Source: a virus
Lineage: Duplodnaviria; Caudoviricetes
IMG/VR virus record: IMGVR_UViG_3300032216_000223
Coordinates: 1-29,566 of that record
Direction: 5' to 3' (one strand)
Length of the DNA: 29,566 nt
The position numbers and the translations under genes were made by a program. The notes beneath the pieces are model-generated. The model saw only the letters and a list, made by a program, of their open reading frames with translations. It was not told the origin of the DNA and did not search any database. Every line of letters starts with the position of its first letter. Positions within the stretch are counted from its first letter, which is position 1. Shown here in pieces: positions 8,077 to 27,099 of this stretch.

Positions 8077-8166
8077 TTAAACTACTGGGGACTGCTCTAT
8101 CTCATCAATAGCATCATCGCTATTAAAGATAGGTTCGTGGCTGCAAGAGCCACAGTTAATGCACAT
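8077..8166 (-). CDS. 29-aa micro-ORF with N-terminal CxxCxxC (not in ORF track)
   Basis: MCINCGSCSHEPIFNSDDAIDEIEQSPVV*. TAATG overlap upstream, and it ends just before the terminator. Confidence 0.55.
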   Translation of the reverse strand: MCINCGSCSHEPIFNSDDAIDEIEQSPVV

Positions 8167-8399
8167 TACTTAGATAGAGCCGCAATCTCATCGGCTGTTA
8201 GACCGAGAGCCGCTAGTTTAGCCTGACCCGCAGCCTTGTCTGCTGCAACTTTTGCTGCTTCTGCTTCTGCCGCAGCCTTCTGGTCTGCTGCTGCTTGAGC
8301 CGCAACAGCCTGTGCTGCAATTTCGTCTGCGGTTAAATCGCGAGTGGTGACAACACCTGTTTCACAATTTACCTCAATCGCTTGTGGTGTATCTGCCAT
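8166..8399 (-). CDS. putative tail fibre assembly chaperone (copy 2)
   Basis: NCETG...RDLTADEIA, Ala-rich helix, KLAALGLTADEIAAL. Paralogous to 10373-10582. AAGGAG RBS. Confidence 0.55.
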   Translation of the reverse strand: MADTPQAIEVNCETGVVTTRDLTADEIAAQAVAAQAAADQKAAAEAEAAKVAADKAAGQAKLAALGLTADEIAALSK

Positions 8400-8413: not shown

Positions 8414-8938
8414 TTATGAATTGGATATGCCGTAAAGGTAAAAGGTTGAGTATTGAACAAATGAGCCATATAAAGGCGTTAAAGTAATTGAAGTAATTGC
8501 TGCTGTATTACTCCATAAACCAGCATCTAGGCTTAATAAACCATTACTGCTACTGTTGTTTTCATTAACAGAATCAGATGACATAGATTTATAATTACTT
8601 AAAGTGTAATTAGGAATGTATATTTCACTATTGGAAAAAGTATTAGATGTTGAACTAGGACCATTAGCCCAAGTAAAAAGAAAACCACTACCCGAATTAC
8701 TTGCCGAACCAGCCGTATTGTTATTAGAATTCCATAGCAATTTTTCAGAATATCCCGTTGATGTTCCATTAAATGTAATTGCTGGATTAGTTACTAAATC
8801 ACCCGTATAATTGCCACGCATACTAAGTTTTAATACAAGGTCCGTCCAAGTGGCAGGAATAGACGAGAAGGTAACGCTTGACACGCCACCTGAGCCTACG
8901 GTGTTAGAAGCGATAAGAGTCATTGTTGGGTTAGCCAT
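8414..8938 (-). CDS. fibre-tip / receptor-binding-like beta protein, paralogue 4
   Basis: Shared pattern VTFSSIP.T..DL.L...W.NTAAITSITL...F.LYG. Confidence 0.6.
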   Translation of the reverse strand: MANPTMTLIASNTVGSGGVSSVTFSSIPATWTDLVLKLSMRGNYTGDLVTNPAITFNGTSTGYSEKLLWNSNNNTAGSASNSGSGFLFTWANGPSSTSNTFSNSEIYIPNYTLSNYKSMSSDSVNENNSSSNGLLSLDAGLWSNTAAITSITLTPLYGSFVQYSTFYLYGISNS

Positions 8939-9438
8939 TATGCAGCCGCGATTCCGTAGAGGGTAAAGGTGTTTCCAACAGAAAAAGTATTACTTGAACC
9001 TGTTAAGATAGTAATTGAGTTAATTGCGCTAGTGTTTCGCCATAATCCTACAGTCGCATCTGTTCCAGTTGCGGCAGCATTACCACGATTTAATACTGTT
9101 TTATATGTTGTCGTATTTGAATAATTCATTATTTGTGAAATAATTATTGCATTAGATGTGCTAGTCATATACCCGTTGTAATCTGGCAAAATTGATGTTG
9201 CAGATGTTTGACGGCTAGAGGAAGCAGCACTTCCGTTGCCCGTTAAATAAGTAGTTGAGTAATTGCTACCCGTATCGCTATTGAATTGAATTACGGGGTT
9301 TGTTCCTGCGTTTGCATTACCCGTAATAATTAAAATTAAATCCGTATAGGTAGATGGAATAGATGTAAAAGTGTAAGAAGTAGTAGTGCTTCCTAAAGTG
9401 GTGGTAGCAATAGGCGTATATGTTGAGCCAGCAGCCAT
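8938..9438 (-). CDS. fibre-tip / receptor-binding-like beta protein, paralogue 3
   Basis: YTFTSIPSTYTDLIL...YSNTTTYKT...LWRNTSAINSITI...FTLYGI. Confidence 0.6.
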   Translation of the reverse strand: MAAGSTYTPIATTTLGSTTTSYTFTSIPSTYTDLILIITGNANAGTNPVIQFNSDTGSNYSTTYLTGNGSAASSSRQTSATSILPDYNGYMTSTSNAIIISQIMNYSNTTTYKTVLNRGNAAATGTDATVGLWRNTSAINSITILTGSSNTFSVGNTFTLYGIAAA

Positions 9439-9439
9439 A

Positions 9440-10051
9440 TTAGTTCACCCCATAAAGTGCAAAAGATGAATACGCTTTGAAAGCACCACTTTCGGGCGTA
9501 ATTGTAATTGAAGTAATTGCTGAAGTGTTTGACCAAAGACCTGATAACAAGCGCACAGAACTATTGTTACCATCATTATTATCCCAACCCCACAAAGCAC
9601 GAGCAGTTTTATATTTGTTTGTATTTGTGTAATCTAAAATATCTGCTATGGCAATTCCTGGAGCAATCATAGAATTTCTTGTTGCAGACATAATCCATTT
9701 TGCAGTATTTTCTGCGCCAGCACCAGCACTATAACCATCTCCATATAAATAATGATTATAATAATTTGTTTGAGTTGTATCACCATTGAAAAAACCACTA
9801 CAGCGTACATTGCCTACACCACTACCACCAGTATCATTATTATTGGCAAGTAACCTTAATTGTAAATGTTTATATGTTTGTGGAATAGACGAAAAAGTAA
9901 TTGAACTTGCTGTACCACTGGTAACTGTTTGAGTGGCAATAGAAGCAAAACTGTTAGGATTGTAAAAAGCATTACCTGCCAACATATCCGAATAGCGATT
10001 TAATGTAGCGCCCACGCCGCCTGCATTGGACATCTTAAATATGGGTGTCAT
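9440..10051 (-). CDS. fibre-tip / receptor-binding-like beta protein, paralogue 2
   Basis: ITFSSIPQTYKHLQL...YTNTNKYKT...LWSNTSAITSITI...FALYGVN. Start placed at 10051 (TAATG coupling). Confidence 0.6.
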   Translation of the reverse strand: MTPIFKMSNAGGVGATLNRYSDMLAGNAFYNPNSFASIATQTVTSGTASSITFSSIPQTYKHLQLRLLANNNDTGGSGVGNVRCSGFFNGDTTQTNYYNHYLYGDGYSAGAGAENTAKWIMSATRNSMIAPGIAIADILDYTNTNKYKTARALWGWDNNDGNNSSVRLLSGLWSNTSAITSITITPESGAFKAYSSFALYGVN

Positions 10052-10353
10052 TATGCGATTGTTACGCCACAAATAGAAAGGTTAATACCAGTGGTAGAGG
10101 CAGAACCAGCAATGATTTGTGTTGTTGCTACTACCTGTTTGCATTGAATAACAGTTGTATCATAAGCACCAACACTTACAGTAGATGCTATTGCTGTACC
10201 GTTAAGAGTAATAGTAAAATTACCTGTTGAACCAGTGGTATTAGCAACCATAATTTCAGTTACGATTGCTGTTGTAGAAGACGGTACTGTGTATAGGGTT
10301 GTGCTTGACGTAGATGCTGCTCCGCGATAAAGTACTGCTGTTGTTGTAGCCAT
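10051..10353 (-). CDS. small beta-rich virion accessory or adaptor protein
   Basis: 100 aa, Thr/Ser-rich, TTLYTVP motif. Inside the fibre cassette, with an AAAGGTAG RBS-like sequence. Confidence 0.55.
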   Translation of the reverse strand: MATTTAVLYRGAASTSSTTLYTVPSSTTAIVTEIMVANTTGSTGNFTITLNGTAIASTVSVGAYDTTVIQCKQVVATTQIIAGSASTTGINLSICGVTIA

Positions 10354-10372: not shown

Positions 10373-10582
10373 TTAGGAGAGTAGGAGTTTTGCTTCATCG
10401 GCAGTGATGCCGAGTTTGCTTAATAGTGCTTCTTTGGTTGCTGCCGCAGCATCTGCCTCTGCTTGACGAGTAGCATTGGCTGTTTGCTGTGCTTCATAGG
10501 CAGCAAATTCTTCATCGTTCATTTCACGGTCAATGACTGTGTCTGTTGATAAGTCGTGTATGCGTACTGTTGGTCTTGTCAT
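10373..10582 (-). CDS. putative tail fibre assembly chaperone (copy 1)
   Basis: MTRPTVRIHDLST..REMNDEEFA...KLGITADEAKLLLS. Start at 10582 by TAATG coupling. Paralogous to 8166-8399. Confidence 0.55.
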   Translation of the reverse strand: MTRPTVRIHDLSTDTVIDREMNDEEFAAYEAQQTANATRQAEADAAAATKEALLSKLGITADEAKLLLS

Positions 10583-11292
10583 TAGTTTACTCCGTATAGT
10601 GTATAGGTTCCAGCAGTCCAAGAAATACTATTACCATCAAGAATTGTTATGCTGGTTATTGCTCCATAATTTGAAGCACTTTCCCAAACACCAAAACCTG
10701 TTTGCGTTGTTGTTCCACCGCCTGGAGCATTTCTAAATGCGCCCACCCACGAACACGCTTTTGGCGTTGTCGTTGAAGCATAAAAAGGAAAAGTAATTAT
10801 TACTTGTTCATTTGAGTTAGTTGTTGCAAAACCAGCAGCACTATAAAGGTTGTAATCACTTGAACCAGTCCAAGAAGAACTACTTAGATAAGTAGAACGC
10901 CATCCCGTTGCATTTACACCATTCCACAAAATGTTTGCTGGTGAACCACCTACTGCATTTTGTATATTAGTAACAACAAGCACTAAATCTTTGTAACTTT
11001 GACTAATTGAAGAAATTGTTACGGTTGAAACGCCTGACATTGAACCTGTTGCTAATTGTGTGTATGAACCAGCAGCAGGAGCAGCAGCCCACTTGATACC
11101 TTGGGTTTGAGTTGAATCTGCATAGAGCATATAGCCATCTGTGCCTACACCTAAGCGAGCAGGGGTAGTGCTGTAAGCAAGTAAGTCACCCTTGGTTGTT
11201 AGCGCAGAAGTTCCAGTTGCACCAGTAGCACCTTGAGAACCATCACCTGCGATAACATCCCAAGATGTCCCGTTATATCTTTTTATTGGCAT
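10582..11292 (-). CDS. fibre-tip protein, paralogue 1, with an N-terminal fibre-like segment
   Basis: IKRYNGTSW, a short G-x-T collagen-like run, TTKGDLL...RLGVGTDG..L.ADS...GIKW, then the shared tip domain (TISSISQSYKDLVL...AITSITI...YTLYGVN). Confidence 0.65.
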   Translation of the reverse strand: MPIKRYNGTSWDVIAGDGSQGATGATGTSALTTKGDLLAYSTTPARLGVGTDGYMLYADSTQTQGIKWAAAPAAGSYTQLATGSMSGVSTVTISSISQSYKDLVLVVTNIQNAVGGSPANILWNGVNATGWRSTYLSSSSWTGSSDYNLYSAAGFATTNSNEQVIITFPFYASTTTPKACSWVGAFRNAPGGGTTTQTGFGVWESASNYGAITSITILDGNSISWTAGTYTLYGVN

Positions 11293-11293
11293 A

Positions 11294-13945
11294 TTAGTAC
11301 GCTCCCATGAGTGTCATTGTTCGTAGGTCTGGGTCTGTTGATGAAGTTGTATCTACCCAAACGTCACCAGTAGTTGGTGATGATGGAGTAGTTGAGCCTG
11401 AGTATATACGCTTACCTGTGTTAGAACCGGTGTTTGTTAGTGGTTGAACACGAACTGTTCCAGAGGTACTGGTATCTGTACCCATACCTAGGAAGTCAAT
11501 GTAGGTGTAAGAAGAAGCAGCACCGCTATCAATCTTTACCTGTGAACCTGATTGAACCTGTGACCAAGTAACACCAGTACCTGTTGTCTGTAGGTAGTAG
11601 CCGTTGGTTCCAGCAGAACCACCAGCTGTCAGGGTTCCTGTAAGGGTTGCGTTATTAAGAGTTCCGCCACTAATAGTAGCCGTAGAGGTAACGGTTCCAG
11701 AGATTGTTGCACCAGCAATGGTTGGTGTTGTAAAAGAATTAGACCATGATGGTGTAGTTCCATCAGTGGTTAGATAGTTACCAGCCTGACCAGTTTGAGA
11801 TGGCAGTGAGGCTGATGTGTATGTACTGAAAGTAATAGAAGTAGTACCAATGGTTACTGGGTTAGTGCTTGTGTTAACAAAGGTAACACCAGTGTTTTGT
11901 GTACCAGCAAGAGTAAATACTACGTCACCATTTGTAACCTCTGCTGTTGTATCGTAGTCAGTAGCACGGGTAAGCACTGCTGCTACTCCACCAGCACCTT
12001 GGTTAGTTACAACATAGATACCATTTTGTAAATCAGTAGTCTGATTCTTAAGAAGCACTCTGTCGTTGGTACTGACATTGCCACCGTCAATACTAAGGCG
12101 ACCAGTGGCTGTTAATGTAAATGTTGCACCTACACCACTAGTGCCATTGTTATATGTTCCAGTAAGGTTTGCTGTAGTAGCACGATTAACTGGAGCGTGG
12201 AAGTTAATAGCTGCAGTAACAGAATCTACGTATTGCTTAGTAGCAGCACCTAAATTTGTGGTTGGGTCAGCAGTAAGAGTTACCGCTGCACTAGTAAGTG
12301 TTACACCATTAAGTGTTGAGTAGGTAGTACCAGAGTTGATGGTAGTAGTACCTAGGGTAGGTGCTGAGTAAGAAGTTGTGGTTGAGATGGCTAACCAAGT
12401 AGAACCACTCCAAGCATACATAAGGCTTGATGTTGTATTAAAGTATGTAGCACCAGTGATAAGCGCATTACCTTGGTTATCAAGGCTAGGTGCAGAGGCA
12501 AAGCTACCTAGGTAGTAAGTCTTGTATGTGTTGTAAGTAGCCAGCGAACTGGATGCTGAAGTAGCTGCAGAGCTTGCTGAAGTAGCAGCAGAGGCAGCAG
12601 ATGTAGCAGCACTGTTAGCCGAAGTTAAAGAAGATGACGCTGATGTGGCAGCGCTATTGGCTGATGTAAGTGCAGCAGATGCTGAAGCAGCAGAGCTGGT
12701 TGCGCTGGTAGCAGCAGCCGTAGCAGATGCAGCAGCGCTTGTCGCTGATGTAGCAGCAGCCGTAGCCGATACCGCAGATGAACCTTGGCTAGTTAAAGAG
12801 GATGAGGCTGATGTAGCAGCCGAAGCAGCAGAAGTTGCTGCAGCCGTTGCTGAGGCAGCAGCACTAGTAGCTGAGGTTGCAGCAGCAGTCTGGCTTACGG
12901 AGGCGCTAGAGGCGCTTGTAGCGGCTGCTGTGGCACTTGCAGCGGCACTGGTAGCCGATGTAGCAGCAGCAGTTGCGCTGGCTGCAGCAGAGGTTGTAGA
13001 GCCAAAGATGGTATCAATGTAGCCCTTGGTTGCTGCATCCGTAGAAGCAGTCGGGGTACCTAGGGTGGTGATCTTAGAGCTACCCATATCAAGAGCACCA
13101 GACATGGTGCCACCTGTCTTAGATAGCTTGCCAGCAAGGTTAGTTGTTACCGTGGTTGAGAACGATGCGTCGTTACCAAGAGCAGCAGCCAACTCGTTGA
13201 GTGTGTCAAGAGCAGCAGGGGCAGAAGCAACTACGTTAGCAACTGCTGTATCTACGTATCCCTTAGTAGCAGCATCTCCTGTAGCCGTTGGTGTACCAAG
13301 ACCTGTAATCTTGTAGCTACCAGCAGCAAGGTTGGTTGACAATGTACCCGAAGCAATGGTTGCTGATGTAACCGTTGCTGAAGATACCGTACCACCATTG
13401 ATGGTAGGGCTGGTCAGAGTCTTGTTAGTAAGAGTCTGTGTGCCAGTTAATGTAACAACTGAAGTAGACAATGAACTTGTGCCAATGTTGGTGAGCGTGT
13501 TGCTAGCACCATCGATTGTCTTGTTAGTAAGAGTCTGAGTAGCAGCAGTACCTACGACAGTACCGTCCGATGTGCCTAGACCATGTAGGGCATGGTTAGC
13601 TATTCCATCGTTGTAGTAACCTGTTGCCTCAATGTGTAGGTTGGCTTCACGTAGGTCACGACCAATAACCATGTGGCGGATGACAGCACCAGCTGAGTGG
13701 TCTTGAGCAGTTGTGCTATCTGCTGCACGAGTAACTGTTAAGTTGTTACCCGAGAAGGCGGTAACATCTACAATTTCTTCAAGAGATGTATCTGGGTCAA
13801 TAACAACCGTAAAGGTTTGACCTGCTGAAATTGTTCCAACAATCAAAGTTGTAGCAGATACCACAGGAAAGACTGTTGCACCAGAAGTAACTGAGGATGT
13901 GAGAGTAGTCTGTTGGGACTTGGACGTATACTTACGAGTTGTCAT
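11294..13945 (-). CDS. long tail fibre protein
   Basis: TQTLTNKT repeats, three (D)AATKxYVD-type necks, APAALDTLNELAAALGND, an Ala/Ser/Thr coiled-coil tract and DRVLLKNQT...NGIY...LTRATD. Confidence 0.85.
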   Translation of the reverse strand: MTTRKYTSKSQQTTLTSSVTSGATVFPVVSATTLIVGTISAGQTFTVVIDPDTSLEEIVDVTAFSGNNLTVTRAADSTTAQDHSAGAVIRHMVIGRDLREANLHIEATGYYNDGIANHALHGLGTSDGTVVGTAATQTLTNKTIDGASNTLTNIGTSSLSTSVVTLTGTQTLTNKTLTSPTINGGTVSSATVTSATIASGTLSTNLAAGSYKITGLGTPTATGDAATKGYVDTAVANVVASAPAALDTLNELAAALGNDASFSTTVTTNLAGKLSKTGGTMSGALDMGSSKITTLGTPTASTDAATKGYIDTIFGSTTSAAASATAAATSATSAAASATAAATSASSASVSQTAAATSATSAAASATAAATSAASAATSASSSLTSQGSSAVSATAAATSATSAAASATAAATSATSSAASASAALTSANSAATSASSSLTSANSAATSAASAATSASSAATSASSSLATYNTYKTYYLGSFASAPSLDNQGNALITGATYFNTTSSLMYAWSGSTWLAISTTTSYSAPTLGTTTINSGTTYSTLNGVTLTSAAVTLTADPTTNLGAATKQYVDSVTAAINFHAPVNRATTANLTGTYNNGTSGVGATFTLTATGRLSIDGGNVSTNDRVLLKNQTTDLQNGIYVVTNQGAGGVAAVLTRATDYDTTAEVTNGDVVFTLAGTQNTGVTFVNTSTNPVTIGTTSITFSTYTSASLPSQTGQAGNYLTTDGTTPSWSNSFTTPTIAGATISGTVTSTATISGGTLNNATLTGTLTAGGSAGTNGYYLQTTGTGVTWSQVQSGSQVKIDSGAASSYTYIDFLGMGTDTSTSGTVRVQPLTNTGSNTGKRIYSGSTTPSSPTTGDVWVDTTSSTDPDLRTMTLMGAY
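12545..13000 (-). repeat. 7-residue Ala/Ser/Thr repeats (SATAAAT/SATSAAA) in the tail fibre
   Basis: Imperfect 21-nt periodicity encoding heptads. Boundaries approximate. Confidence 0.85.
13419..13537. repeat. 20-nt direct repeat GTCTTGTTAGTAAGAGTCTG (13419-13438 and 13518-13537)
   Basis: Exact match encoding the two QTLTNKT motifs of the fibre. Confidence 0.8.
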
Positions 13946-13953
13946 CTATCTAC

Positions 13954-14880
13954 CTATCGGCTGTAGTGGACGCGGGCTGGGAACTGGAGCTTTTGCTTTA
14001 ATGATTCTTCTTCAAGGCGTTGCATGTACAAAGCCTGAAGTTGTTTTGTTACGTTGATACCTGTGCCGTATGGACGCTTAGTTTCATATTCGTCCGCTGC
14101 TGCAGAGGTGATAGATATACGGGCTGGATCTACGAAAGAGGACAGACGGTACATAGCACCGTAAATCACTACGTCTCTCATAGATGAAGGCAAGCCTGTG
14201 GTTGATTCAAAGTTATCTGTTTCATTCACCATCTGAACAGGCATCTTGGCATAGACAGCGTGAACAGTACGTCCCGGTAGAATGTTGTCGTAAAGTGATA
14301 CGGTCTTAGATAGTCCTGAGTTAGGTCCATCTGGAGTCTGTACTCCCCAGTACGCAGTATCTGCGATTGGATCCCAACGCCATTGACGAATAGGCAACCA
14401 CTCACGTGTTGGTCCTACTGTCTGCCATGACATTGAAAGAATCTGGATTGCTTCTGATGGGATCTGGTATGTAGTACGAGAAGCCAAGAAGCTGAAATCT
14501 GTTGATGCTGTTGCAAATACCTTTGGGTATACCGCATTGAGTGTGTCATTCAAAGCACGGGCTACGGCTACGCGTGGGTAGGTAGGGGTGATGATGACCT
14601 TAGTGTTGATAGCATGGTTAACAGCAGTAGTGCTGTTGTAGCCACGACCAAAGGGAGCAATAGTAATCGTGTTAGCCTGACGGTCATAACTGTCTACCCA
14701 CATCATCTCACTGTCGATCTCAATGATTCCTTTACCAATGTTGTCGGTAGAACCAACAGACAGGATCAAGTCACCAGAGGTGCAGGCTTGTGTTAGATAG
14801 GTAGCGCGGTCTTGACGGTAGGTGAAACCTTGAATGTCAAGCTGTACATCGTCAATTAAATTTCCAAGTGTAGTTGCCAT
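13954..14880 (-). CDS. probable head-tail adaptor / tail tubular protein A-like
   Basis: TTLGNLIDDVQ...ALNDTLN...TYQIP...DVVIYGAMYRL...Y..RL layout of podovirus adaptors. Sits between head genes and fibre. Confidence 0.6.
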   Translation of the reverse strand: MATTLGNLIDDVQLDIQGFTYRQDRATYLTQACTSGDLILSVGSTDNIGKGIIEIDSEMMWVDSYDRQANTITIAPFGRGYNSTTAVNHAINTKVIITPTYPRVAVARALNDTLNAVYPKVFATASTDFSFLASRTTYQIPSEAIQILSMSWQTVGPTREWLPIRQWRWDPIADTAYWGVQTPDGPNSGLSKTVSLYDNILPGRTVHAVYAKMPVQMVNETDNFESTTGLPSSMRDVVIYGAMYRLSSFVDPARISITSAAADEYETKRPYGTGINVTKQLQALYMQRLEEESLKQKLQFPARVHYSR

Positions 14881-18965: not shown

Positions 18966-20201
18966 TTAGAAGGTGCCTTGAATATTTCTACCCAATGAGC
19001 CAGTGTAAAGACCGGCTTGACTTACATTGGCAGGGGCTATACCAGACCTACCAGCAAATTGCTGTGTCTCTAGTTCCTTCAGTTGTTGCTTCTTACGGGC
19101 AGCTGATGCTGCACCAGTAGTAGAAAATTGTTCTGCTTCTGCTGCTGCTTGATCGTAAGGACCTTGGATCTGTCCATTGTAAATGCTGCTTAACTTAGAA
19201 GCTATAGGAAGTTCTTGACCAATCTTGGCATAGCCAAGTTGTGCTTGATTGTAAGTAACACCTTGTAGAGCAAGAGCCTCAGCAGAGGCTACGTTAGTTG
19301 GGAGTCCTTCACCAACTGCTGCGCTACCAATCTGTGCTGCTGCTGCCTTAGTCTGTAACTTAGGTAGAGTCTCATCAGGGGCAAGAACATAAGCAACTAA
19401 ATCTTTATTAGTAAGGGTTCCGTAGAAATTATTAAAGGTCTTAAGTACTTCTGGGTCAGCATTAGCTATGGTGTCTTCGGCTAGCTTAATGCGGTCATTG
19501 AATTCTACCGCTGACATATCTCCACCAATGTAATTAGCAAACATCTTTTCATTAGCCACGCGGTCAGTGCTAAGCATGTTGCCTAGCCCATAAGATTTCA
19601 ATGTGTCAGCATAGGAGTTTTCTAAATTTATATATGCTGCTTCTGAAATGGCATTAAGCCCAGCGTTAACACGGGCAGTATTGCCTGCAAAGCGGGTGGT
19701 GTATGCATCATTCCATGACTTGCCTGTAACAGGATCAATGGTCTTGTCATACTTAAGTTTAGCCAAAGCCTCATCGCGCGTAAGGCCCATTTTAATCATG
19801 CGGGTTACTGTGTCACTAAGACTGCCTAGTCCATATTCATTAAGCAACATTGTAAGATTAGCAAAAGCATCTGCGTTAGATGTACTAGCCGTTGAAGTAT
19901 TGCCACCAGTAATAACAGGTGTGCCAGCTTTTACTCCGCCAAAACCATCGTTGTAATAAGTAACAGTAGTTGTTACGCCAGTCAATGGATCGGTTGTCAC
20001 AGTAGGGGAGACATCTAAAGCAACAGTTCCTACGCCTGTAGTGCCACCAATTACAGCTTGCCTTGTTCCGGCAACGGAAGATAAATCGGTAGTTGACAAA
20101 CCTAATGCAGCAGCAGAAGCAGCGTAAGGATTTACTTGTTTAGATACAACGGCAGTATTAGTTGATGCTGCTTGATCTACTTGACGGTCCGTTCTTGCCA
20201 T
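18966..20201 (-). CDS. probable internal virion (ejection) protein
   Basis: 411 aa, Ala/Gln/Thr-rich and helical. Third of three large genes between portal and scaffold. Confidence 0.5.
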   Translation of the reverse strand: MARTDRQVDQAASTNTAVVSKQVNPYAASAAALGLSTTDLSSVAGTRQAVIGGTTGVGTVALDVSPTVTTDPLTGVTTTVTYYNDGFGGVKAGTPVITGGNTSTASTSNADAFANLTMLLNEYGLGSLSDTVTRMIKMGLTRDEALAKLKYDKTIDPVTGKSWNDAYTTRFAGNTARVNAGLNAISEAAYINLENSYADTLKSYGLGNMLSTDRVANEKMFANYIGGDMSAVEFNDRIKLAEDTIANADPEVLKTFNNFYGTLTNKDLVAYVLAPDETLPKLQTKAAAAQIGSAAVGEGLPTNVASAEALALQGVTYNQAQLGYAKIGQELPIASKLSSIYNGQIQGPYDQAAAEAEQFSTTGAASAARKKQQLKELETQQFAGRSGIAPANVSQAGLYTGSLGRNIQGTF

Positions 20202-22006
20202 TAGTTACCACCAAATCCAAATGCTTGAAGGAACGTGTTAGTAAAATCAGTAACTGTTTGATGTGCTTCAGGAGTTTTAGCATAATCAGGTAGTCCTTGA
20301 GCAGCCCTATCAAACGTGCCTTTGTCCCAGCCTTGGCTAACTGAATTCATGATGAATGAGTTCTTTGTTGAATCAGGAACTTTAACACCCATCTTTTGTT
20401 CATACCAATTAGCATGAGTATCTGCTATATCTTTAACTGTTCCATTTGCTTTTATGTGATCGGCAAGTGTAGGGTGAATTTTTATTGCTAGTTGCTTTAG
20501 TCTTTCCGTAACAGCCTTGACCGCATCTTGAGGATTCTGTTGCTTCCAAGCTTCACCTAGATACTGCAAAGCCTGTGTTGTGGTAGTAGGCAAAGCGTAG
20601 TCGGTAGCTACTTTCATAACTTCATCAACATAACCAGCTATCTTGCCGGGTGATTTGCTATTAAGAATCTGTTCTGCATTAACATTTTTGAATACAGTCT
20701 GAGCAACCTGTGCTTTTATAACTTCATAATCAGAAGTAGATAAACTAGAACCTGTGTTTACTTGGTCTCTTAAACCTTGACCATCAGGGGTTATCCTGCT
20801 TAGTGTTTTGGCTTGCCGTTCAGCAGCATTAACTTTATTGTAGTAATCATTTCTTTGTTGAACTGTAGCAGGAGAGCCAAAGTTCTCCATCATGTAAGAG
20901 TTTATATCCCGATCTGTGCCGGGACGATCAGTAAAGTTTTGTGTAAGTTTAGTTGTGGTTTTACCAGCACCCGTTGTTGGGGTGTACTTGCCTAGGTTAC
21001 CAAGGAAGTCGTTAAGGGTAGGGAAGTTTGTCTTACCGTTTGTATCAATAAATCCTTGTAAAGAATCTATGCTGTACTTTTGAAGAGCACCCGTAATGTT
21101 GCTATAGATATCTCCTGAAGAATAACCAGCAGCAGCAAGTTTCTTTCTAGCTGCATCAGCTCCGCCTAAAGTTTTAATGATTGCTTGGACTTCACCCTCA
21201 AGGGTGATGGCACCATTATTACCAATTATGCTTAACTTGTCTCCTGATTTAGCAGGTGGCAAAAATAATACTTCACCAGCTTTACCCTTAGCCATAACAA
21301 CGGGGTTACCATTATTAAGTCCAATACTATAATCAGTCAATAAAGCACTTGATCCACCAGTACCAGTTGTGCCAGTACCTGTGGCTACGGAAGTCTTATT
21401 ACCAGCCATAGCATTGGCTTGATCAATAGCAGCTTGTGTAGCAGCAATATCGCTACTGGTATACTTACCTGTCTGTGCTTGCTGACGGGCTAGCTTGTCC
21501 TGCAAAGCAGGCAAGGCTTTCTTGGCATCATTAGCTACTTTAGCGTCAGATACTTTTTGATCTATGTCTACAGTGATAGCACCTAGGCGAGTAGAGTTAG
21601 CGCCTATTGCGTCATACAAGCCTTTAGCAGCAGAAAAAGCAGGGCTATTTGTAGGAACTCTATCTAGAATTGAAGACGCCAAAGTACTGGAGTTACTAAT
21701 TAAACCCTTGATAACGCTTTCATTAATAACAGGTGCCCCTATAGCAACGCCTTGTCCTTCTGGAAATCCAGCAGCTATGCCTTTATTAAACACTTCAATA
21801 AGGTTTGCTTGGGCAGGCATAAGCTTGCTAACTAAGTCAGTAAACCTCTTCTGGTCACTAACGTTACCACCCTGTGCTGCACCTTGTGCACCAAAGATCT
21901 GGTCATTGATAGCAGTATAAGTATTATAAGCCCGACTGTACTGTGCATCCCAGTAGTCTTGAGGTGTTTGGAATCCAGACCAATATGGTTTAGATTTAGT
22001 AGCCAT
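20201..22006 (-). CDS. probable internal virion (ejection) protein
   Basis: 601 aa, Ala/Gln/Gly-rich, no Cys. TAATG coupled. Confidence 0.5.
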   Translation of the reverse strand: MATKSKPYWSGFQTPQDYWDAQYSRAYNTYTAINDQIFGAQGAAQGGNVSDQKRFTDLVSKLMPAQANLIEVFNKGIAAGFPEGQGVAIGAPVINESVIKGLISNSSTLASSILDRVPTNSPAFSAAKGLYDAIGANSTRLGAITVDIDQKVSDAKVANDAKKALPALQDKLARQQAQTGKYTSSDIAATQAAIDQANAMAGNKTSVATGTGTTGTGGSSALLTDYSIGLNNGNPVVMAKGKAGEVLFLPPAKSGDKLSIIGNNGAITLEGEVQAIIKTLGGADAARKKLAAAGYSSGDIYSNITGALQKYSIDSLQGFIDTNGKTNFPTLNDFLGNLGKYTPTTGAGKTTTKLTQNFTDRPGTDRDINSYMMENFGSPATVQQRNDYYNKVNAAERQAKTLSRITPDGQGLRDQVNTGSSLSTSDYEVIKAQVAQTVFKNVNAEQILNSKSPGKIAGYVDEVMKVATDYALPTTTTQALQYLGEAWKQQNPQDAVKAVTERLKQLAIKIHPTLADHIKANGTVKDIADTHANWYEQKMGVKVPDSTKNSFIMNSVSQGWDKGTFDRAAQGLPDYAKTPEAHQTVTDFTNTFLQAFGFGGN

Positions 22007-25000
22007 TAGAATGCCTGCTTAACTGCGACGTAAGTATCGCGGGATAAGGACTTAAGGATTGACTTGAAGATTGCACGGTCAGCCTCAGCAACTGCTAAGT
22101 CACCGTTCATTAGATCTGTCAAGTTAGCCTCAATCTGTTGTCTGCGTTCTGCTTTAAGTTCTGCGGAATTGCTTAGGGATTTAAGTGCAGGATCCTGAGC
22201 AAATGCCATGAAGTCTTTAATCATCTTGATTGCTAGTGCCATACGTGTACGGGTAGCAGGTGGGATGTTTGCTGATGGGTCATTGACTAGCTGGTCTAAG
22301 TTAGATAGCAGCTTTGTTTCTGTTCCAATGTTACTGCCTGCTCCAATAATGGCAGACTTTAGTAATGGGTTAGATTGCATCAAGCCATCACGCGCTGCTG
22401 TTGCTTCAGCAATGATCTGTTGACGTTGTGCTATTGAACTAGTTGCAAGTATTGCAGCCTTTTCATTAGTAGCAATATCATAATAAGCCTGCTTATCTTG
22501 TGCTACAAGTAGGTCATTATAGTAAGTCTCAAGACTCTTATTGGTAACAAGACCAGCAGCCTGTAGGTAGTTGAATGAAGAAGCATTGTACTGCCCTACC
22601 TGTGGAGCAAAGATATAAGCAACTTCACCGTATGTGCTAATCAAACCATTGTTCTCAACAGCCCAGTTGTTTAATGCTTGGGTGTTCTTGACAATCACAC
22701 GGGTAGCCTTAGAATCACGGGATACCGTGTAGACCAACTTACCGGGATTCTTACCAATAAATGCAACCAAAGCCATCTCATATGGGTCCTGTACGTCACC
22801 ATTAGTCTTGGCTGTAATAGCATTTAGTAGGTCAAAGAACTCTGTGCGTAGCCCTGTTACACCCACACGTTGTAGGTAATCGGGTACACCCTGACTCTCT
22901 ACCAAGGTAGGAGTAGCAGGTGAGATAAAGCCTAGAAGGTTACGCATGAAGATAATGTTGTGTGCTGACACACGTACGTTCTTAAGGTATTCAGCTTTCT
23001 CTTTATCAGTAGAGTTAGCAGTTAATGGGCTAACTCCATTAGCAGCATTGTAGGCAAGAGCCTGCATTCCCGCTGTCACTTCCTGACGGCTCTTCTCATT
23101 CATAGGTAACATGTCCCATGCACGCTGTAATGAGGTAGGCATCAGTGCTTTTTGCAGGTTAGTATTGGTACCAAAGTTACCTAAACCAATTGCGCTAGCT
23201 GCATTACCAGCCTTAATAAGATCAGGGTTATGGCTATAGCCAAGCAAATTCTTCATGGCTATTACGCTAAGTCCAGCTATAGGACCAGACAGCATAGGCA
23301 ATCCAGCATCCTGTTGGAACGATGGGTTTACCATGTTTAACTTCATTGTTAGATTGTTAAACATTGGCTGGTGATAGCCTACATCTTTACCTGTTAATGC
23401 ACGAAGGGTAGTATCTGTAGCCTTGAACAAGATGTTATCCATAGGAATGTTTACATACTCGTTGTTTTGTGCATCTGTAAAGATGGATCCGCTAGCAGAA
23501 AGACCTAGATGCGCTAGGCGCATGCGGTATAGAACACGCAAAGGTACTTCTTTTAAGCGGTAGATACGGCGCTGAAAGTCCTCTGTAGCACGGTAGTAAC
23601 GACCTACAGTACGTACTCCATAGGAGAAGTTAGAACGTACAGCAGGGTTATCTGCATACTTAAGAATAGTGTTAGCAGCTTCCTGCATACCGATCTCAGT
23701 AAAGCGCTTCTCTGCTATAGCACGCACTTGTTCGTTTAGAATTTCTGCTGCCTTAGGTGAAGCATATCTTTCAGGATCAGCTTTAACCATAGCCTTGTAT
23801 GTATCTGCAGCAAATTGACGCTCAATAGGAGCATAACTCTTACGAAGTTCTGTGTATGTAACCATCAAAGCAGGCTGACGATAGATAGAATTTATCTGCC
23901 TATCCATCCAACTCATCCACGTATTACCGTACTTACGGAACAAAGACTCTGGATCTTTCAAACCCGGGAACTCAATGCCCGTATTGATCATACCTTGTGG
24001 ACGATGCTTGGTAGTCCAGTTCATAAAGTTATTAAAGTCCACACCACCAGCAGCATCATTCCATGATGGCTTAATTAAGTCCTTGGAATCACGTAGTTGC
24101 TTAGCATGAATGTTCTTTACTGCATTAAATAACTGCTCATTGTAGCCCTCATGGCTACCGTGGAAAGTGGTATACATGTCCGTAAGCATGCGTCCAATTT
24201 GATCTCTGGCAATAGTAGCGTCATCTATTCCTTGAGAAGCAAGCTCAAATGAACGGGCAGACATACCCTTAAGTTCATCAATAGCAGCTTGATCTTTAAC
24301 TATCCAGCCAGTTGATGTCTTCTCTAAGCCAACCGCCATAGACAGTTGATCCATAGCCTTCTCAGCATCCTCTGTAGTCTCAAGCGCCTTGTTAGAAAAG
24401 AACACATGAGCAGGGTTAAGGATACGTCGTTCAGTTAGCTTTACTTTATTACCAGCAAAGGCTCTTACCCACTTATCAAAGTGCGCTAAAGCAAGGTGAG
24501 ATTCAGATATGTTCTGCAAATCTTTAGTTGAAACACTATATGTAGCACCACCAGTTTTAAGTTCAAACTCTTCTAATGCTTTAGTTAAGTTAGTTACATC
24601 AACCATGGCTTTATGAAGCTCAGGTTCAATTTTTCCTGATAGACCAGAACGACCTACTAAAGATTCAGCAAGTGCATTCAACATATCTGGGTGGTGAACC
24701 AACCCTTGGAATAAATATCCACGTGATTCTGCGTTTAGACGCTTGCCGTAGATAGAGTCTACATATTGAAAGATAGCTTCGCGCTTTTGTAGATCGCGCA
24801 ATAATGTAGGGTCTTCAATGCCGTGTGCTTTAGCATAATCTTCAAGCAACTGTTGACGCTTTTCAAATGGTACAGCCTCATGTAGTGCATTTCTGCGGAA
24901 TACTTTTTGAATTCCGGCACGAAGTGGACCTGATGCTTCTGGGCTACCTGTAAAAGCAGTAGACATTCTGCCCATGCGGGTACCTTCACGCCTTGCATAA

Positions 25001-27099
25001 CCAAGAATATCCTTGGCTGGTGCTGTCATGAGGAACATCATTGCTTCATCAATAGTAGAACGAATACCTAGACGTGGTAGTAGGGTCAAGAGAGACCATG
25101 TATCTACCAGTTTCTTAGAGAAAGGACCATTAGCAGCACCCATGGCAGCATTCAATAGGTTTCTTTTAGACTTCATATCTAATACTGCTTCTGAAATCTT
25201 ATCGTAAGGCAGTGCACCAATTCTATATGCTGAATGGTAAGGCTGAATTGAATGTTCGCCTGCAAGGGTAGGTACACCTTGAAGGTTTTTCATGCTTGTA
25301 GCCTCAAGATGAGGAGCCAAAACTTCCGGTACGGCTGTATCTACCATGGTAGCAAAGCCACCTGTGGTACCAAACTTAGTTTGCAAGATCTCATTCATCA
25401 ATGTAGTACCTGATGGTGATGCATGTAAGCCAAACTTGTACATGATTCCTGCATAAAGGTTACGAACAATGATTACTTGCTCATCAGGAGTAGAATCAAG
25501 AAACTTCTGAGTCATGAAATCAGCCATATCACGTGGCATTAACTGACGAGCAACGGTAGTAAAGGTACTTGCAGTCTGTGCTGCGTCTTTACCAATCTTA
25601 ATTTCAGCACCAGCAGGTGAACGAGAAGCCTGTTGACCTATCCAATAACCAAAACGCTTTAATTTACTGATCTCACCAGTAGCTGCATCAATGGTATCAA
25701 CAAGTCCTTTGCTCTGACCTTGAAGCTTGTCGAGCGTGTCTCCTGTTTTTATAGCAGCATTGTAGATTTCTTCGCCTTTAGCCTGCAGTGTCTCTACATC
25801 TCGTCCTACTGTTTTAAGAGCACCAAGTGTTTTGGATGTAGTTGGGTTAAATATGCTGTCCATAAATGACATGATGCCATCTGTATAGTTACGGTGAGCC
25901 TTAGCAACTGCTACTCCGTTACGTGCATAGGTAACACCTTCTACGCGACCAGCCAACATAAGGTGTACGTTCTCAGCCTGTGAGAAGTATTCCTGTGCTG
26001 ACTTGGCATCATAAACTTCTGCTTTAGCAAGGCGTTTAATAATGTCACGGTTGGCATAGCCGGGAACGTCTTGGGTAATCTGACGATAGACCTGTGACTT
26101 TTCAGCTGTTGTCGATGCTTCTGAAAATTTCTTAAGTGATGGACCAAGAGTATCTTGCCATAGGCTATAGACACGTGGCTCTTCAAATGCTTTAGCCACA
26201 CCAACTGGTAGTCCGCCATGGGTTTCTGCTGAATCTTTAATGGTCTGAGCTAAACGCTCACCCATAGTAGCAGCTTTGTCTCCACCACCTGTTAGCCAAG
26301 TAAGTGGATCAATAACAATTTGATAGATAGCATCAAACAAACCTGAAACATTCTTACGGGTACCGTTAATAAGGTCACCGTGGACTCCACCGTTAGTAAC
26401 AATCTTGTCATCAGTCATACGGGTTATGTCACGACCCGGACTTACCTGAGCATACTTAACGTAGTCTAGTGTAGGTCTAAAATCATTTGGCTTGTTGTAG
26501 GCTTTTTGAATAGATTCAAGAATACCTTGATCAACTTTTCCATGAGCTTGAACAATCTCACCGGGTGTCTTACCCGCTAGCAAACCTTTGGCTACTTCTA
26601 CATCAGATGAACCATAAATCTGTACTGCTTTATCAAGAGCGCCGTTATCATAAACTGAGTTGCCGTCCCAAGCAGCCTTCCAAATCTTTGAATTAAATAC
26701 ACTACCGTCACCTTGAGCGACTTCACGGGCTACCAAGTATGGCGCATTGATGGCGCGGTTATAAGCGCCTGCTACTTTGAAAATACCAATGATAGGGCTG
26801 GCTGCTACAGTGCCTGCCCATTTAAGGGCACCCATAATCTTCTGACCTTCAGATGCTGGACCCTGCATGTAGGGAGCATTCTTAAACATAAACTTAAGAC
26901 CCTCTTGAATTTGTGGGTCCAACTTGGCATAAGCATCATGCCCTAAATTAGTATCCATAGCCATGAGCTTCTTATGCTGGTCAAGGGCATAGCTCATCTG
27001 TTCAACTTGGTTTACGCTCTGGTTAGATAGGTTTGCGTTCTTAGCAGCAGCGTAGATGTTGGGAGATGCTTGAGCAACAATCGGATCTACTTGTTGCAT
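22006..27099 (-). CDS. large probable internal virion (ejection) protein
   Basis: 1697 aa, largely helical, DPLTWL motif. Size and position resemble podovirus ejectosome proteins. No catalytic motif recognised. Confidence 0.55.
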   Translation of the reverse strand: MQQVDPIVAQASPNIYAAAKNANLSNQSVNQVEQMSYALDQHKKLMAMDTNLGHDAYAKLDPQIQEGLKFMFKNAPYMQGPASEGQKIMGALKWAGTVAASPIIGIFKVAGAYNRAINAPYLVAREVAQGDGSVFNSKIWKAAWDGNSVYDNGALDKAVQIYGSSDVEVAKGLLAGKTPGEIVQAHGKVDQGILESIQKAYNKPNDFRPTLDYVKYAQVSPGRDITRMTDDKIVTNGGVHGDLINGTRKNVSGLFDAIYQIVIDPLTWLTGGGDKAATMGERLAQTIKDSAETHGGLPVGVAKAFEEPRVYSLWQDTLGPSLKKFSEASTTAEKSQVYRQITQDVPGYANRDIIKRLAKAEVYDAKSAQEYFSQAENVHLMLAGRVEGVTYARNGVAVAKAHRNYTDGIMSFMDSIFNPTTSKTLGALKTVGRDVETLQAKGEEIYNAAIKTGDTLDKLQGQSKGLVDTIDAATGEISKLKRFGYWIGQQASRSPAGAEIKIGKDAAQTASTFTTVARQLMPRDMADFMTQKFLDSTPDEQVIIVRNLYAGIMYKFGLHASPSGTTLMNEILQTKFGTTGGFATMVDTAVPEVLAPHLEATSMKNLQGVPTLAGEHSIQPYHSAYRIGALPYDKISEAVLDMKSKRNLLNAAMGAANGPFSKKLVDTWSLLTLLPRLGIRSTIDEAMMFLMTAPAKDILGYARREGTRMGRMSTAFTGSPEASGPLRAGIQKVFRRNALHEAVPFEKRQQLLEDYAKAHGIEDPTLLRDLQKREAIFQYVDSIYGKRLNAESRGYLFQGLVHHPDMLNALAESLVGRSGLSGKIEPELHKAMVDVTNLTKALEEFELKTGGATYSVSTKDLQNISESHLALAHFDKWVRAFAGNKVKLTERRILNPAHVFFSNKALETTEDAEKAMDQLSMAVGLEKTSTGWIVKDQAAIDELKGMSARSFELASQGIDDATIARDQIGRMLTDMYTTFHGSHEGYNEQLFNAVKNIHAKQLRDSKDLIKPSWNDAAGGVDFNNFMNWTTKHRPQGMINTGIEFPGLKDPESLFRKYGNTWMSWMDRQINSIYRQPALMVTYTELRKSYAPIERQFAADTYKAMVKADPERYASPKAAEILNEQVRAIAEKRFTEIGMQEAANTILKYADNPAVRSNFSYGVRTVGRYYRATEDFQRRIYRLKEVPLRVLYRMRLAHLGLSASGSIFTDAQNNEYVNIPMDNILFKATDTTLRALTGKDVGYHQPMFNNLTMKLNMVNPSFQQDAGLPMLSGPIAGLSVIAMKNLLGYSHNPDLIKAGNAASAIGLGNFGTNTNLQKALMPTSLQRAWDMLPMNEKSRQEVTAGMQALAYNAANGVSPLTANSTDKEKAEYLKNVRVSAHNIIFMRNLLGFISPATPTLVESQGVPDYLQRVGVTGLRTEFFDLLNAITAKTNGDVQDPYEMALVAFIGKNPGKLVYTVSRDSKATRVIVKNTQALNNWAVENNGLISTYGEVAYIFAPQVGQYNASSFNYLQAAGLVTNKSLETYYNDLLVAQDKQAYYDIATNEKAAILATSSIAQRQQIIAEATAARDGLMQSNPLLKSAIIGAGSNIGTETKLLSNLDQLVNDPSANIPPATRTRMALAIKMIKDFMAFAQDPALKSLSNSAELKAERRQQIEANLTDLMNGDLAVAEADRAIFKSILKSLSRDTYVAVKQAF

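Follow-up and report, generated by a model that had tools for sequence, protein, structure and literature searches.

A tail-fibre module divided between two adjacent genes: a candidate docking joint for a separately encoded fibre tip

In the DNA analysed here, a 29,566-nucleotide (nt) stretch that comprises positions 1 to 29,566 of IMG/VR virus record IMGVR_UViG_3300032216_000223 (Caudoviricetes; hereafter the window), the gene for a tail fibre of 883 amino acids (aa) ends in the first part of a motif whose second part opens the next gene, which encodes a 236-aa protein that we call the tip. This arrangement raises the question of whether the division is genuine and, if so, whether the two halves meet again as proteins, such that the tip is docked on the fibre. 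We find that the split is a real, conserved and widespread feature, and argue below that completion of the module in trans probably docks the tip, while the C-terminal tail of the fibre probably binds a 100-aa adaptor.

A split at the fibre/tip gene boundary

The fibre gene (11294..13945; all features lie on the minus strand unless stated otherwise) matches the tail fibre family phrog_38058 (E 2.9e-66), and its product comprises one contiguous module, the first half of the divided motif (half A) and a C-terminal tail. The protein ends in GKRIYSGSTTPSSPTTGDVWVDTTSSTDPDLRTMTLMGAY, where half A, or the "socket" (KRIYSGSTTPSSPTTGDVWVD; 11351..11413), reads KRIY..P..P..GDVWVD and is predicted from profile alignments and AlphaFold2 (AF2) to form strands β1 and β2 around a proline loop. 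It is followed by a polar linker, TTSSTDP (11330..11350), the length of which varies in an alignment of relatives, and then by the tail DLRTMTLMGAY and the stop codon (11294..11329). A single base (11293) separates the fibre stop (11294-11296) from the ATG of the tip gene (11290-11292), and the tip starts MPIKRYNGTSW, of which KRYNGTSW is half B; this "plug" (MPIKRYNGTSWDVI; 11251..11292) is predicted by the same two approaches to form a β3-β4 hairpin. The original prediction had reported both the division of the motif between genes 1 nt apart and an earlier unbroken copy within the same fibre, and both are confirmed on the sequence, with the intact copy at 12389..12502 being recovered by alignment and by PHROG tail-fibre matches.

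A profile built from 22 contiguous modules aligns to the fibre end over columns 2-22 (HHalign probability 96) and to the start of the tip gene over columns 24-36 (probability 94), with no overlap between the two. Since non-overlapping columns match the two ends, the complementarity of the halves is not a product of chance, and each gene supplies a part of a single domain that the other lacks. Moreover, half A of the window matches the C-terminal A motifs of unrelated phages (probability 98). A natural intact copy that is close to both halves (L402) was modelled by AF2 with a predicted local distance difference test (pLDDT) score of 93.9 and strands at residues 2-5, 17-20, 25-29 and 34-36; in this predicted fold, the turn between β2 and β3 is where the gene boundary falls.

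Given that the window is a metagenomic assembly, the original prediction had allowed that the two open reading frames (ORFs) might be one gene broken by an assembly error. However, Logan contigs are continuous over the junction in three runs, which belong to two studies (X1 record 4, X3 record 19 and, from the other study, X5 record 29), although the X1 contig is possibly the window's own source, and no indel at the junction is present among the differences listed for these contigs. A search with the fibre end returned 53 loci, 24 of them clear relatives, and half B lies one base past the stop in all 23 that have downstream sequence. In relatives, the stop and start codons are preserved at all 38 distinct junctions; a 1-nt gap (T, C or A) is present at 32 of these and a TAATG overlap at the other six. 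Because of the gap-free contigs and these 38 junctions, assembly error or the recent decay of one gene has a negligible chance of accounting for the split. The same closeness of stop and start, within one base in 38 of 38 junctions, could instead be expected if a programmed bypass or frameshift joined both ORFs, yielding, besides the separate fibre, a fusion protein in which the module is whole. Yet the junctions fall into two registers (+1 and -1) with a variable spacer base, the roughly 14 extra residues would fall in the turn, and other A/B pairs are not adjacent. In addition, a Shine-Dalgarno-like GGAG (11302..11305) lies in the Gly-Ala codons of the tail, 9 nt 5' of the tip ATG, and the glycine codon of M-G-A is GGA (producing GGAG) in 11/11 loci with a gene inserted after the fibre, as against 3/26 loci where the 100-aa gene follows the fibre directly. 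This codon pattern, which suggests a selected site, together with the two registers, points to separate initiation and argues against a fixed recoding register; we consequently regard recoding as highly improbable. Judging from the stop, the start and the GGAG, fibre and tip appear to be translated separately.

Recurrence of the two halves across phages

Three DNA scans were performed, in each of which loci were selected on one half and then examined for its counterpart. The selection was on half B at the start of a gene, on tandem B or on A alone, with counts taken from the first 80 loci with flanks out of 96, 94 and 120, respectively. The B scan yielded 56 distinct matches, 55 of which lie at an ORF start. 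Single-B genes were accompanied by A plus tail in 30 cases, by an internal orphan A in 11 (counting L283, where A was found only within the B gene itself) and by neither in four, while triple-B genes had a partner gene ending in A in nine cases and none in one. Among 155 control loci, 145 contained neither half, five both, three B only and two A only.

In the tandem-B scan, the pattern for which required two units only, 73 distinct loci were found to carry three units (62 loci), two (10) or four (1). Where at least 3 kilobases (kb) of upstream sequence was available, the upstream gene ends in A in 21/61 loci under the strict pattern, and in 53/61 after the pattern was widened post hoc, on seeing ND in place of GD. 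No gene ending in A was found downstream of the tandem-B loci, on their opposite strand, or in any of the 155 controls. In the A scan, tandem B follows downstream in 11/19 C-terminal A loci, compared to 0/9 contiguous and 0/28 other loci. Four phages in culture, RcPutin (gp12/gp14), RcZahn (gp39/gp41), Che8 (gp24/gp25) and HINdeR (gp6/gp7), likewise pair A with B. The halves therefore co-occur above background, and the survey that the original prediction proposed, of C-terminal fibre halves against N-terminal halves in the next gene, reveals this co-occurrence across unrelated phages. Furthermore, B-unit number and A position correspond in 50/50 loci of the B scan that contain both halves, such that C-terminal sockets are paired with three tandem B hairpins in 9/9 cases and non-terminal sockets with one in 41/41.

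A set of weak matches from the search with the fibre end (L185-L213) was set aside; of eight inspected, seven were unrelated proteins and L185 was informative. Separately, several genes (L078 6151-6399, L311, L316, L237 and L254) combine an N-terminal B with an orphan A further on, for which a circularly permuted module or head-to-tail chains are possible explanations.

The fibre tail, the 100-aa protein and the tip

The original prediction treated the tail as an extra that might dock a second branch, such as the 100-aa protein (10051..10353). In the group as a whole the tail is instead the default fibre end, mostly lacking an A half and adjoining the 100-aa gene. Across 56 distinct loci encoding the 100-aa protein, the upstream gene ends in an MGAx-like tail in 48, and is directly adjacent in 34; the pattern used is loose and was written after viewing these loci, and it matches 2/1168 ORFs in unrelated loci. 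Few of the 56 (the L011 group and L080) carry half A. In the Streptomyces siphophage phiCAM, a Sipho_Gp37-type protein unrelated to the fibre ends DDQILRIMGVW directly before an adaptor homologue, and the Streptomyces siphophage phiHau3 has the same arrangement, with the protein end DDIMAIMGVW. Of 31 split loci, 26 carry an adaptor gene at a downstream distance of 0.8-2.4 kb, the other five having at most 2.5 kb of sequence. In four runs, contigs lead from the body of the fibre gene to the beginning of the 100-aa gene, the letters in between being unread, which is consistent with relatives that lack the tip cassette.

The 100-aa protein is modelled as an eight-stranded β-sandwich (AF2 pLDDT 94.6), structure comparison with viral proteins gave 258 matches at E<=0.001, some of which are annotated as virion proteins, and 895 relatives of the family were recovered in one search. 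Taken with its gene context, a role as fibre adaptor is likely. Foldseek searches of the PDB gave only generic jelly rolls, such as KHP30 cement and Ena3A, at template modelling (TM) scores of at most 0.60, and the protein was therefore left unassigned to any of them. Docking of the tail on this protein is supported by gene context, and the MGAY tail would appear to be a joint separate from, and more common than, the A/B pair. Given that the tail is the default fibre end and usually stands directly before the 100-aa gene without A, the fibre-tail-adaptor arrangement is the common state, to which socket and tip gene would have been added as a side branch.

Adaptor-like paralogues at three loci (L016 3522-3851, L069 3356-3703 and L078 2854-3420) follow genes with tails of their own (PTALMTMGA, QPILAAQIFG and INPLIVGGM), which suggests several tail-adaptor specificities within one genome. 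Other homologues of the adaptor (P0123-P0143) are approximately 262 aa long, with an insert of two repeats that follows strand 1. One of 23 longer matches (P0121), a single sequence on one contig, is a fibre-adaptor fusion that was not counted given that a lost stop or an error is possible, and P0142 looks chimeric. Genes that lie between fibre and adaptor without A or B often start MT[KR]ARDLA, MTRSRDVA or MTKARSNA (L016, L032, L038, L039, L050, L061, L073 and others), making this a candidate third N-terminal docking motif.

The tip itself (10582..11292) consists, by sequence and profiles, of half B, a short Gly-X-X stretch, a TTKGD fibre module and a C-terminal domain of about 160 aa. Window-type joints are followed by 31 distinct tips of 163-461 aa, and among pairs with joints at least 85% identical the C-terminal domains fall into different clusters in 34/42, examples being L165/L166 and L173/L174, in which the joints are identical. 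The clustering (14 clusters for 31 tips) over-splits related domains, and so indicates diversity rather than 14 folds. The proposal that the tip is a swappable part consequently stands insofar as tips vary behind near-identical joints; however, the first 16-20 residues of the tip stay with the fibre in alignments of relatives, so that exchange takes place inside the tip gene and not at the gene boundary. For this reason, we would interpret the split as making a branch possible rather than as a requirement for swapping. Paralogues of the window's tip domain lie at 8938-9438 (E 1e-11), 9440-10048 and 8414-8938; the domain itself matched no named family in Pfam and profile searches, and had no match among GenBank phages; that it binds the host is our guess.

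A proposed joint, its rivals and its setting

In the mechanism that we propose, the fibre gene would supply strands 1-2 of a four-stranded module and the tip gene would begin with the missing hairpin, so that the separately translated tip would dock on the fibre by completing the module in trans, while the MGAY tail would bind the 100-aa adaptor and turn the fibre end into a two-way branch point. Phage tail fibres are generally trimeric, and from this, together with the Gly-X-X and TTKGD repeats, we infer a trimeric state for both fibre and tip. Where the socket is the last element of a trimer, it would leave the axis free and be capped by one chain bearing three hairpins; where the chain continues past the socket, as in the window, it would be filled by one hairpin from each of three chains. 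Reciprocal co-occurrence, a cut in the predicted turn and three B units opposite C-terminal sockets all argue for the in-trans completion put forward originally, and we hold the joint scheme, tip docking plus adaptor binding, with reasonable confidence. We would give only even chances to the broader idea that one split module, shared by phages across hosts, underlies a valence-coded plug-and-socket grammar, in which an end socket calls for one three-hairpin chain, a non-end socket for three single hairpins and a side branch, and a tail of the form D-x-x-L-x-x-M-G-A-aromatic recruits the jelly-roll adaptor family.

Several observations weigh against the proposed scheme. Its support comes throughout from genomes or single-chain models, and mutual information across 77 intact modules gives no clear A-B coupling. 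The loci counted are not phylogenetically independent, the 30 A-plus-tail cases representing one lineage, and Fisher p-values consequently overstate the association; 8/19 C-terminal A loci lack tandem B under the strict pattern (some having degenerate or N-terminal forms), no A was found within 4 kb of 8/61 tandem-B loci, and the four single-B genes noted above have no A in view. Additionally, accommodating both tip and adaptor on one three-fold end poses a steric problem.

Two further explanations accept the split and differ over what binds what. Under one, the A-B joint is real, and the tail is only a trimer-closing helix or is kept for the ribosome-binding site of the next gene, without binding the 100-aa protein; the presence of GGAG in the Gly-Ala codons at all loci with an inserted gene is in keeping with this, as are the 8/56 adaptor loci that lack an upstream tail by the pattern used. 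Nevertheless, 23/26 loci in which the adaptor gene follows retain M-G-A although the glycine codon is GGC or GGT, which places the constraint on the protein, the tail also ends unrelated proteins next to the same adaptor family in Streptomyces siphophages, and adaptor paralogues are accompanied by their own tail variants, leaving this explanation unlikely. Slightly less likely again, in our estimation, is that the halves do not bind each other at all, but are completed within their own homotrimers or bind a third protein, with the genes travelling together as a cassette. While orphan halves without a visible partner do exist, and tandem-B units could fold alone, this reading is opposed by the correspondence between B number and A position, and by the recurrence of A/B pairing in phages of unrelated hosts and where other genes lie in between.

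Phages with separately encoded tips or with branched fibres have been described before, with whole domains as the docking parts. In T2 and S16, a separately encoded adhesin tip (gp38) is attached to the trimeric fibre end (gp37) via a helical attachment domain; this cap is not known to involve a split module or a branch.

The closest solved analogue, with the same geometry of a trimer end and a separately encoded partner, comes from the mycobacteriophage Mysterious, where a cryo-electron microscopy preprint describes a short C-terminal β-α-β end of trimeric gp40 engaging the triangular, three-lobed β N-terminus of gp41 (PMC13252515). As described there, that joint is a 3:1 end cap without a tail or second partner, unlike the window, has a helix where half A has a proline loop, and is not presented, in the text available, as a split module or general joint (PMC13252515). 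In the orthologous Acadian gp40, 5/6 residue numbers checked agree; its end has a motif like PF24243 (Phage_tail_C), below cut-off, and Acadian gp41 starts with three short repeats, whereas the window tip has one B unit and three occur in other phages with a C-terminal A. No profile similarity was detected between half A and the Acadian gp40 C-terminus, nor any C-terminal β-α-β Phage_tail_C motif in the window by profile searches, so that the Mysterious joint, a precedent in favour of the proposed docking that works alike, is not shown to belong to the same family as A/B. In the neck fibre of Anabaena phage A-1(L) (gp82-gp81-gp80), which is multi-gene like that of the window, the N-terminal β-hairpins of one trimer are modelled to dock on the preceding trimer, but in a linear bead chain of ~14 repeats with an interface fitted at 6 Å (PMC10966104); comparing the tip domain with GenBank phages revealed no sequence link to the window. 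In the Klebsiella phages KP32, K11 and KP34, and in CBA120 and RaK2, one host-binding protein serves as the docking site for another that has its own gene, and specificity parts vary behind a conserved anchor (PMC8262889, PMC10253068), an arrangement that the window would share. Docking there employs T4 gp10-like (XD) domains and tailspike head domains, whereas the window joint would consist of halves of a 35-residue module, and Pfam and PHROG profile searches, the only ones made for these, detected no gp10-like XD domain, depolymerase β-helix or tailspike head in the window.

We found no description of the A/B motif pair in the literature searched. DUF7360 (PF24059), which that literature does not name, matches 8/22 intact modules (best E 6.5e-7) and no window protein above the Pfam cut-off, while DUF2510 (PF10708) matches 32/37 triple-B stretches at E<=1 and no window protein in a Pfam search; both families are uncharacterised. 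Sequence comparison of the adaptor, the intact module, half A, triple-B and Acadian gp40 against the PDB returned only chance-level or spurious repeat matches. If the proposed joint is correct, a 20-residue socket and a 12-residue plug would account for the attachment to the virion of many "hypothetical" proteins encoded by freshwater, Rhodobacter and mycobacterial phages, partner stoichiometry would be predictable from sequence, and the 100-aa family would gain a role. Should the wider grammar also hold, fibre architecture could be read from gene ends, and its parts used as portable connectors.

The window derives from a tailed phage, and encodes a portal, major head protein, SU10-type adaptor and CHAP endolysin according to profile searches, as well as a 657-aa tail-region protein. 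The phage is presumably short-tailed, and its host presumably an actinobacterium. Aquatic metagenomes are the source of related reads, with no RNA holder listed among the runs containing them. An SU10-adaptor-like gene (13954-14880, by profile match) precedes the fibre gene, after which the order is fibre (883 aa), tip (236), 69 aa, 100 aa, and then 202, 166, 174 and 77 aa. By sequence comparison, three of these (202, 166 and 174 aa; 8414..10048) are stand-alone tip-domain paralogues without half B, located downstream of the adaptor gene. The 69-aa protein (10373..10582) is of a type often found after tip genes in relatives and, given this context, is a possible chaperone; it and the small protein at 8166-8399 both end in LG(I/L)T.DE...L, and the latter may likewise be a chaperone. 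Within the fibre, a low-complexity Ala/Ser/Thr repeat of ~150 aa (12530-12990) has raised GC content. Three large genes between portal and capsid (22006-27099, 20201-22006 and 18966-20201; 1697, 601 and 411 aa) possibly encode ejection proteins, with no family match for the 1697-aa and 601-aa genes in Pfam and PHROG profile searches. Finally, DNA primase is encoded on the plus strand by overlapping ORFs in different frames (515-892 and 729-1358), comprising an N-terminal part and a TOPRIM part, which may reflect either a natural split or a frameshift.

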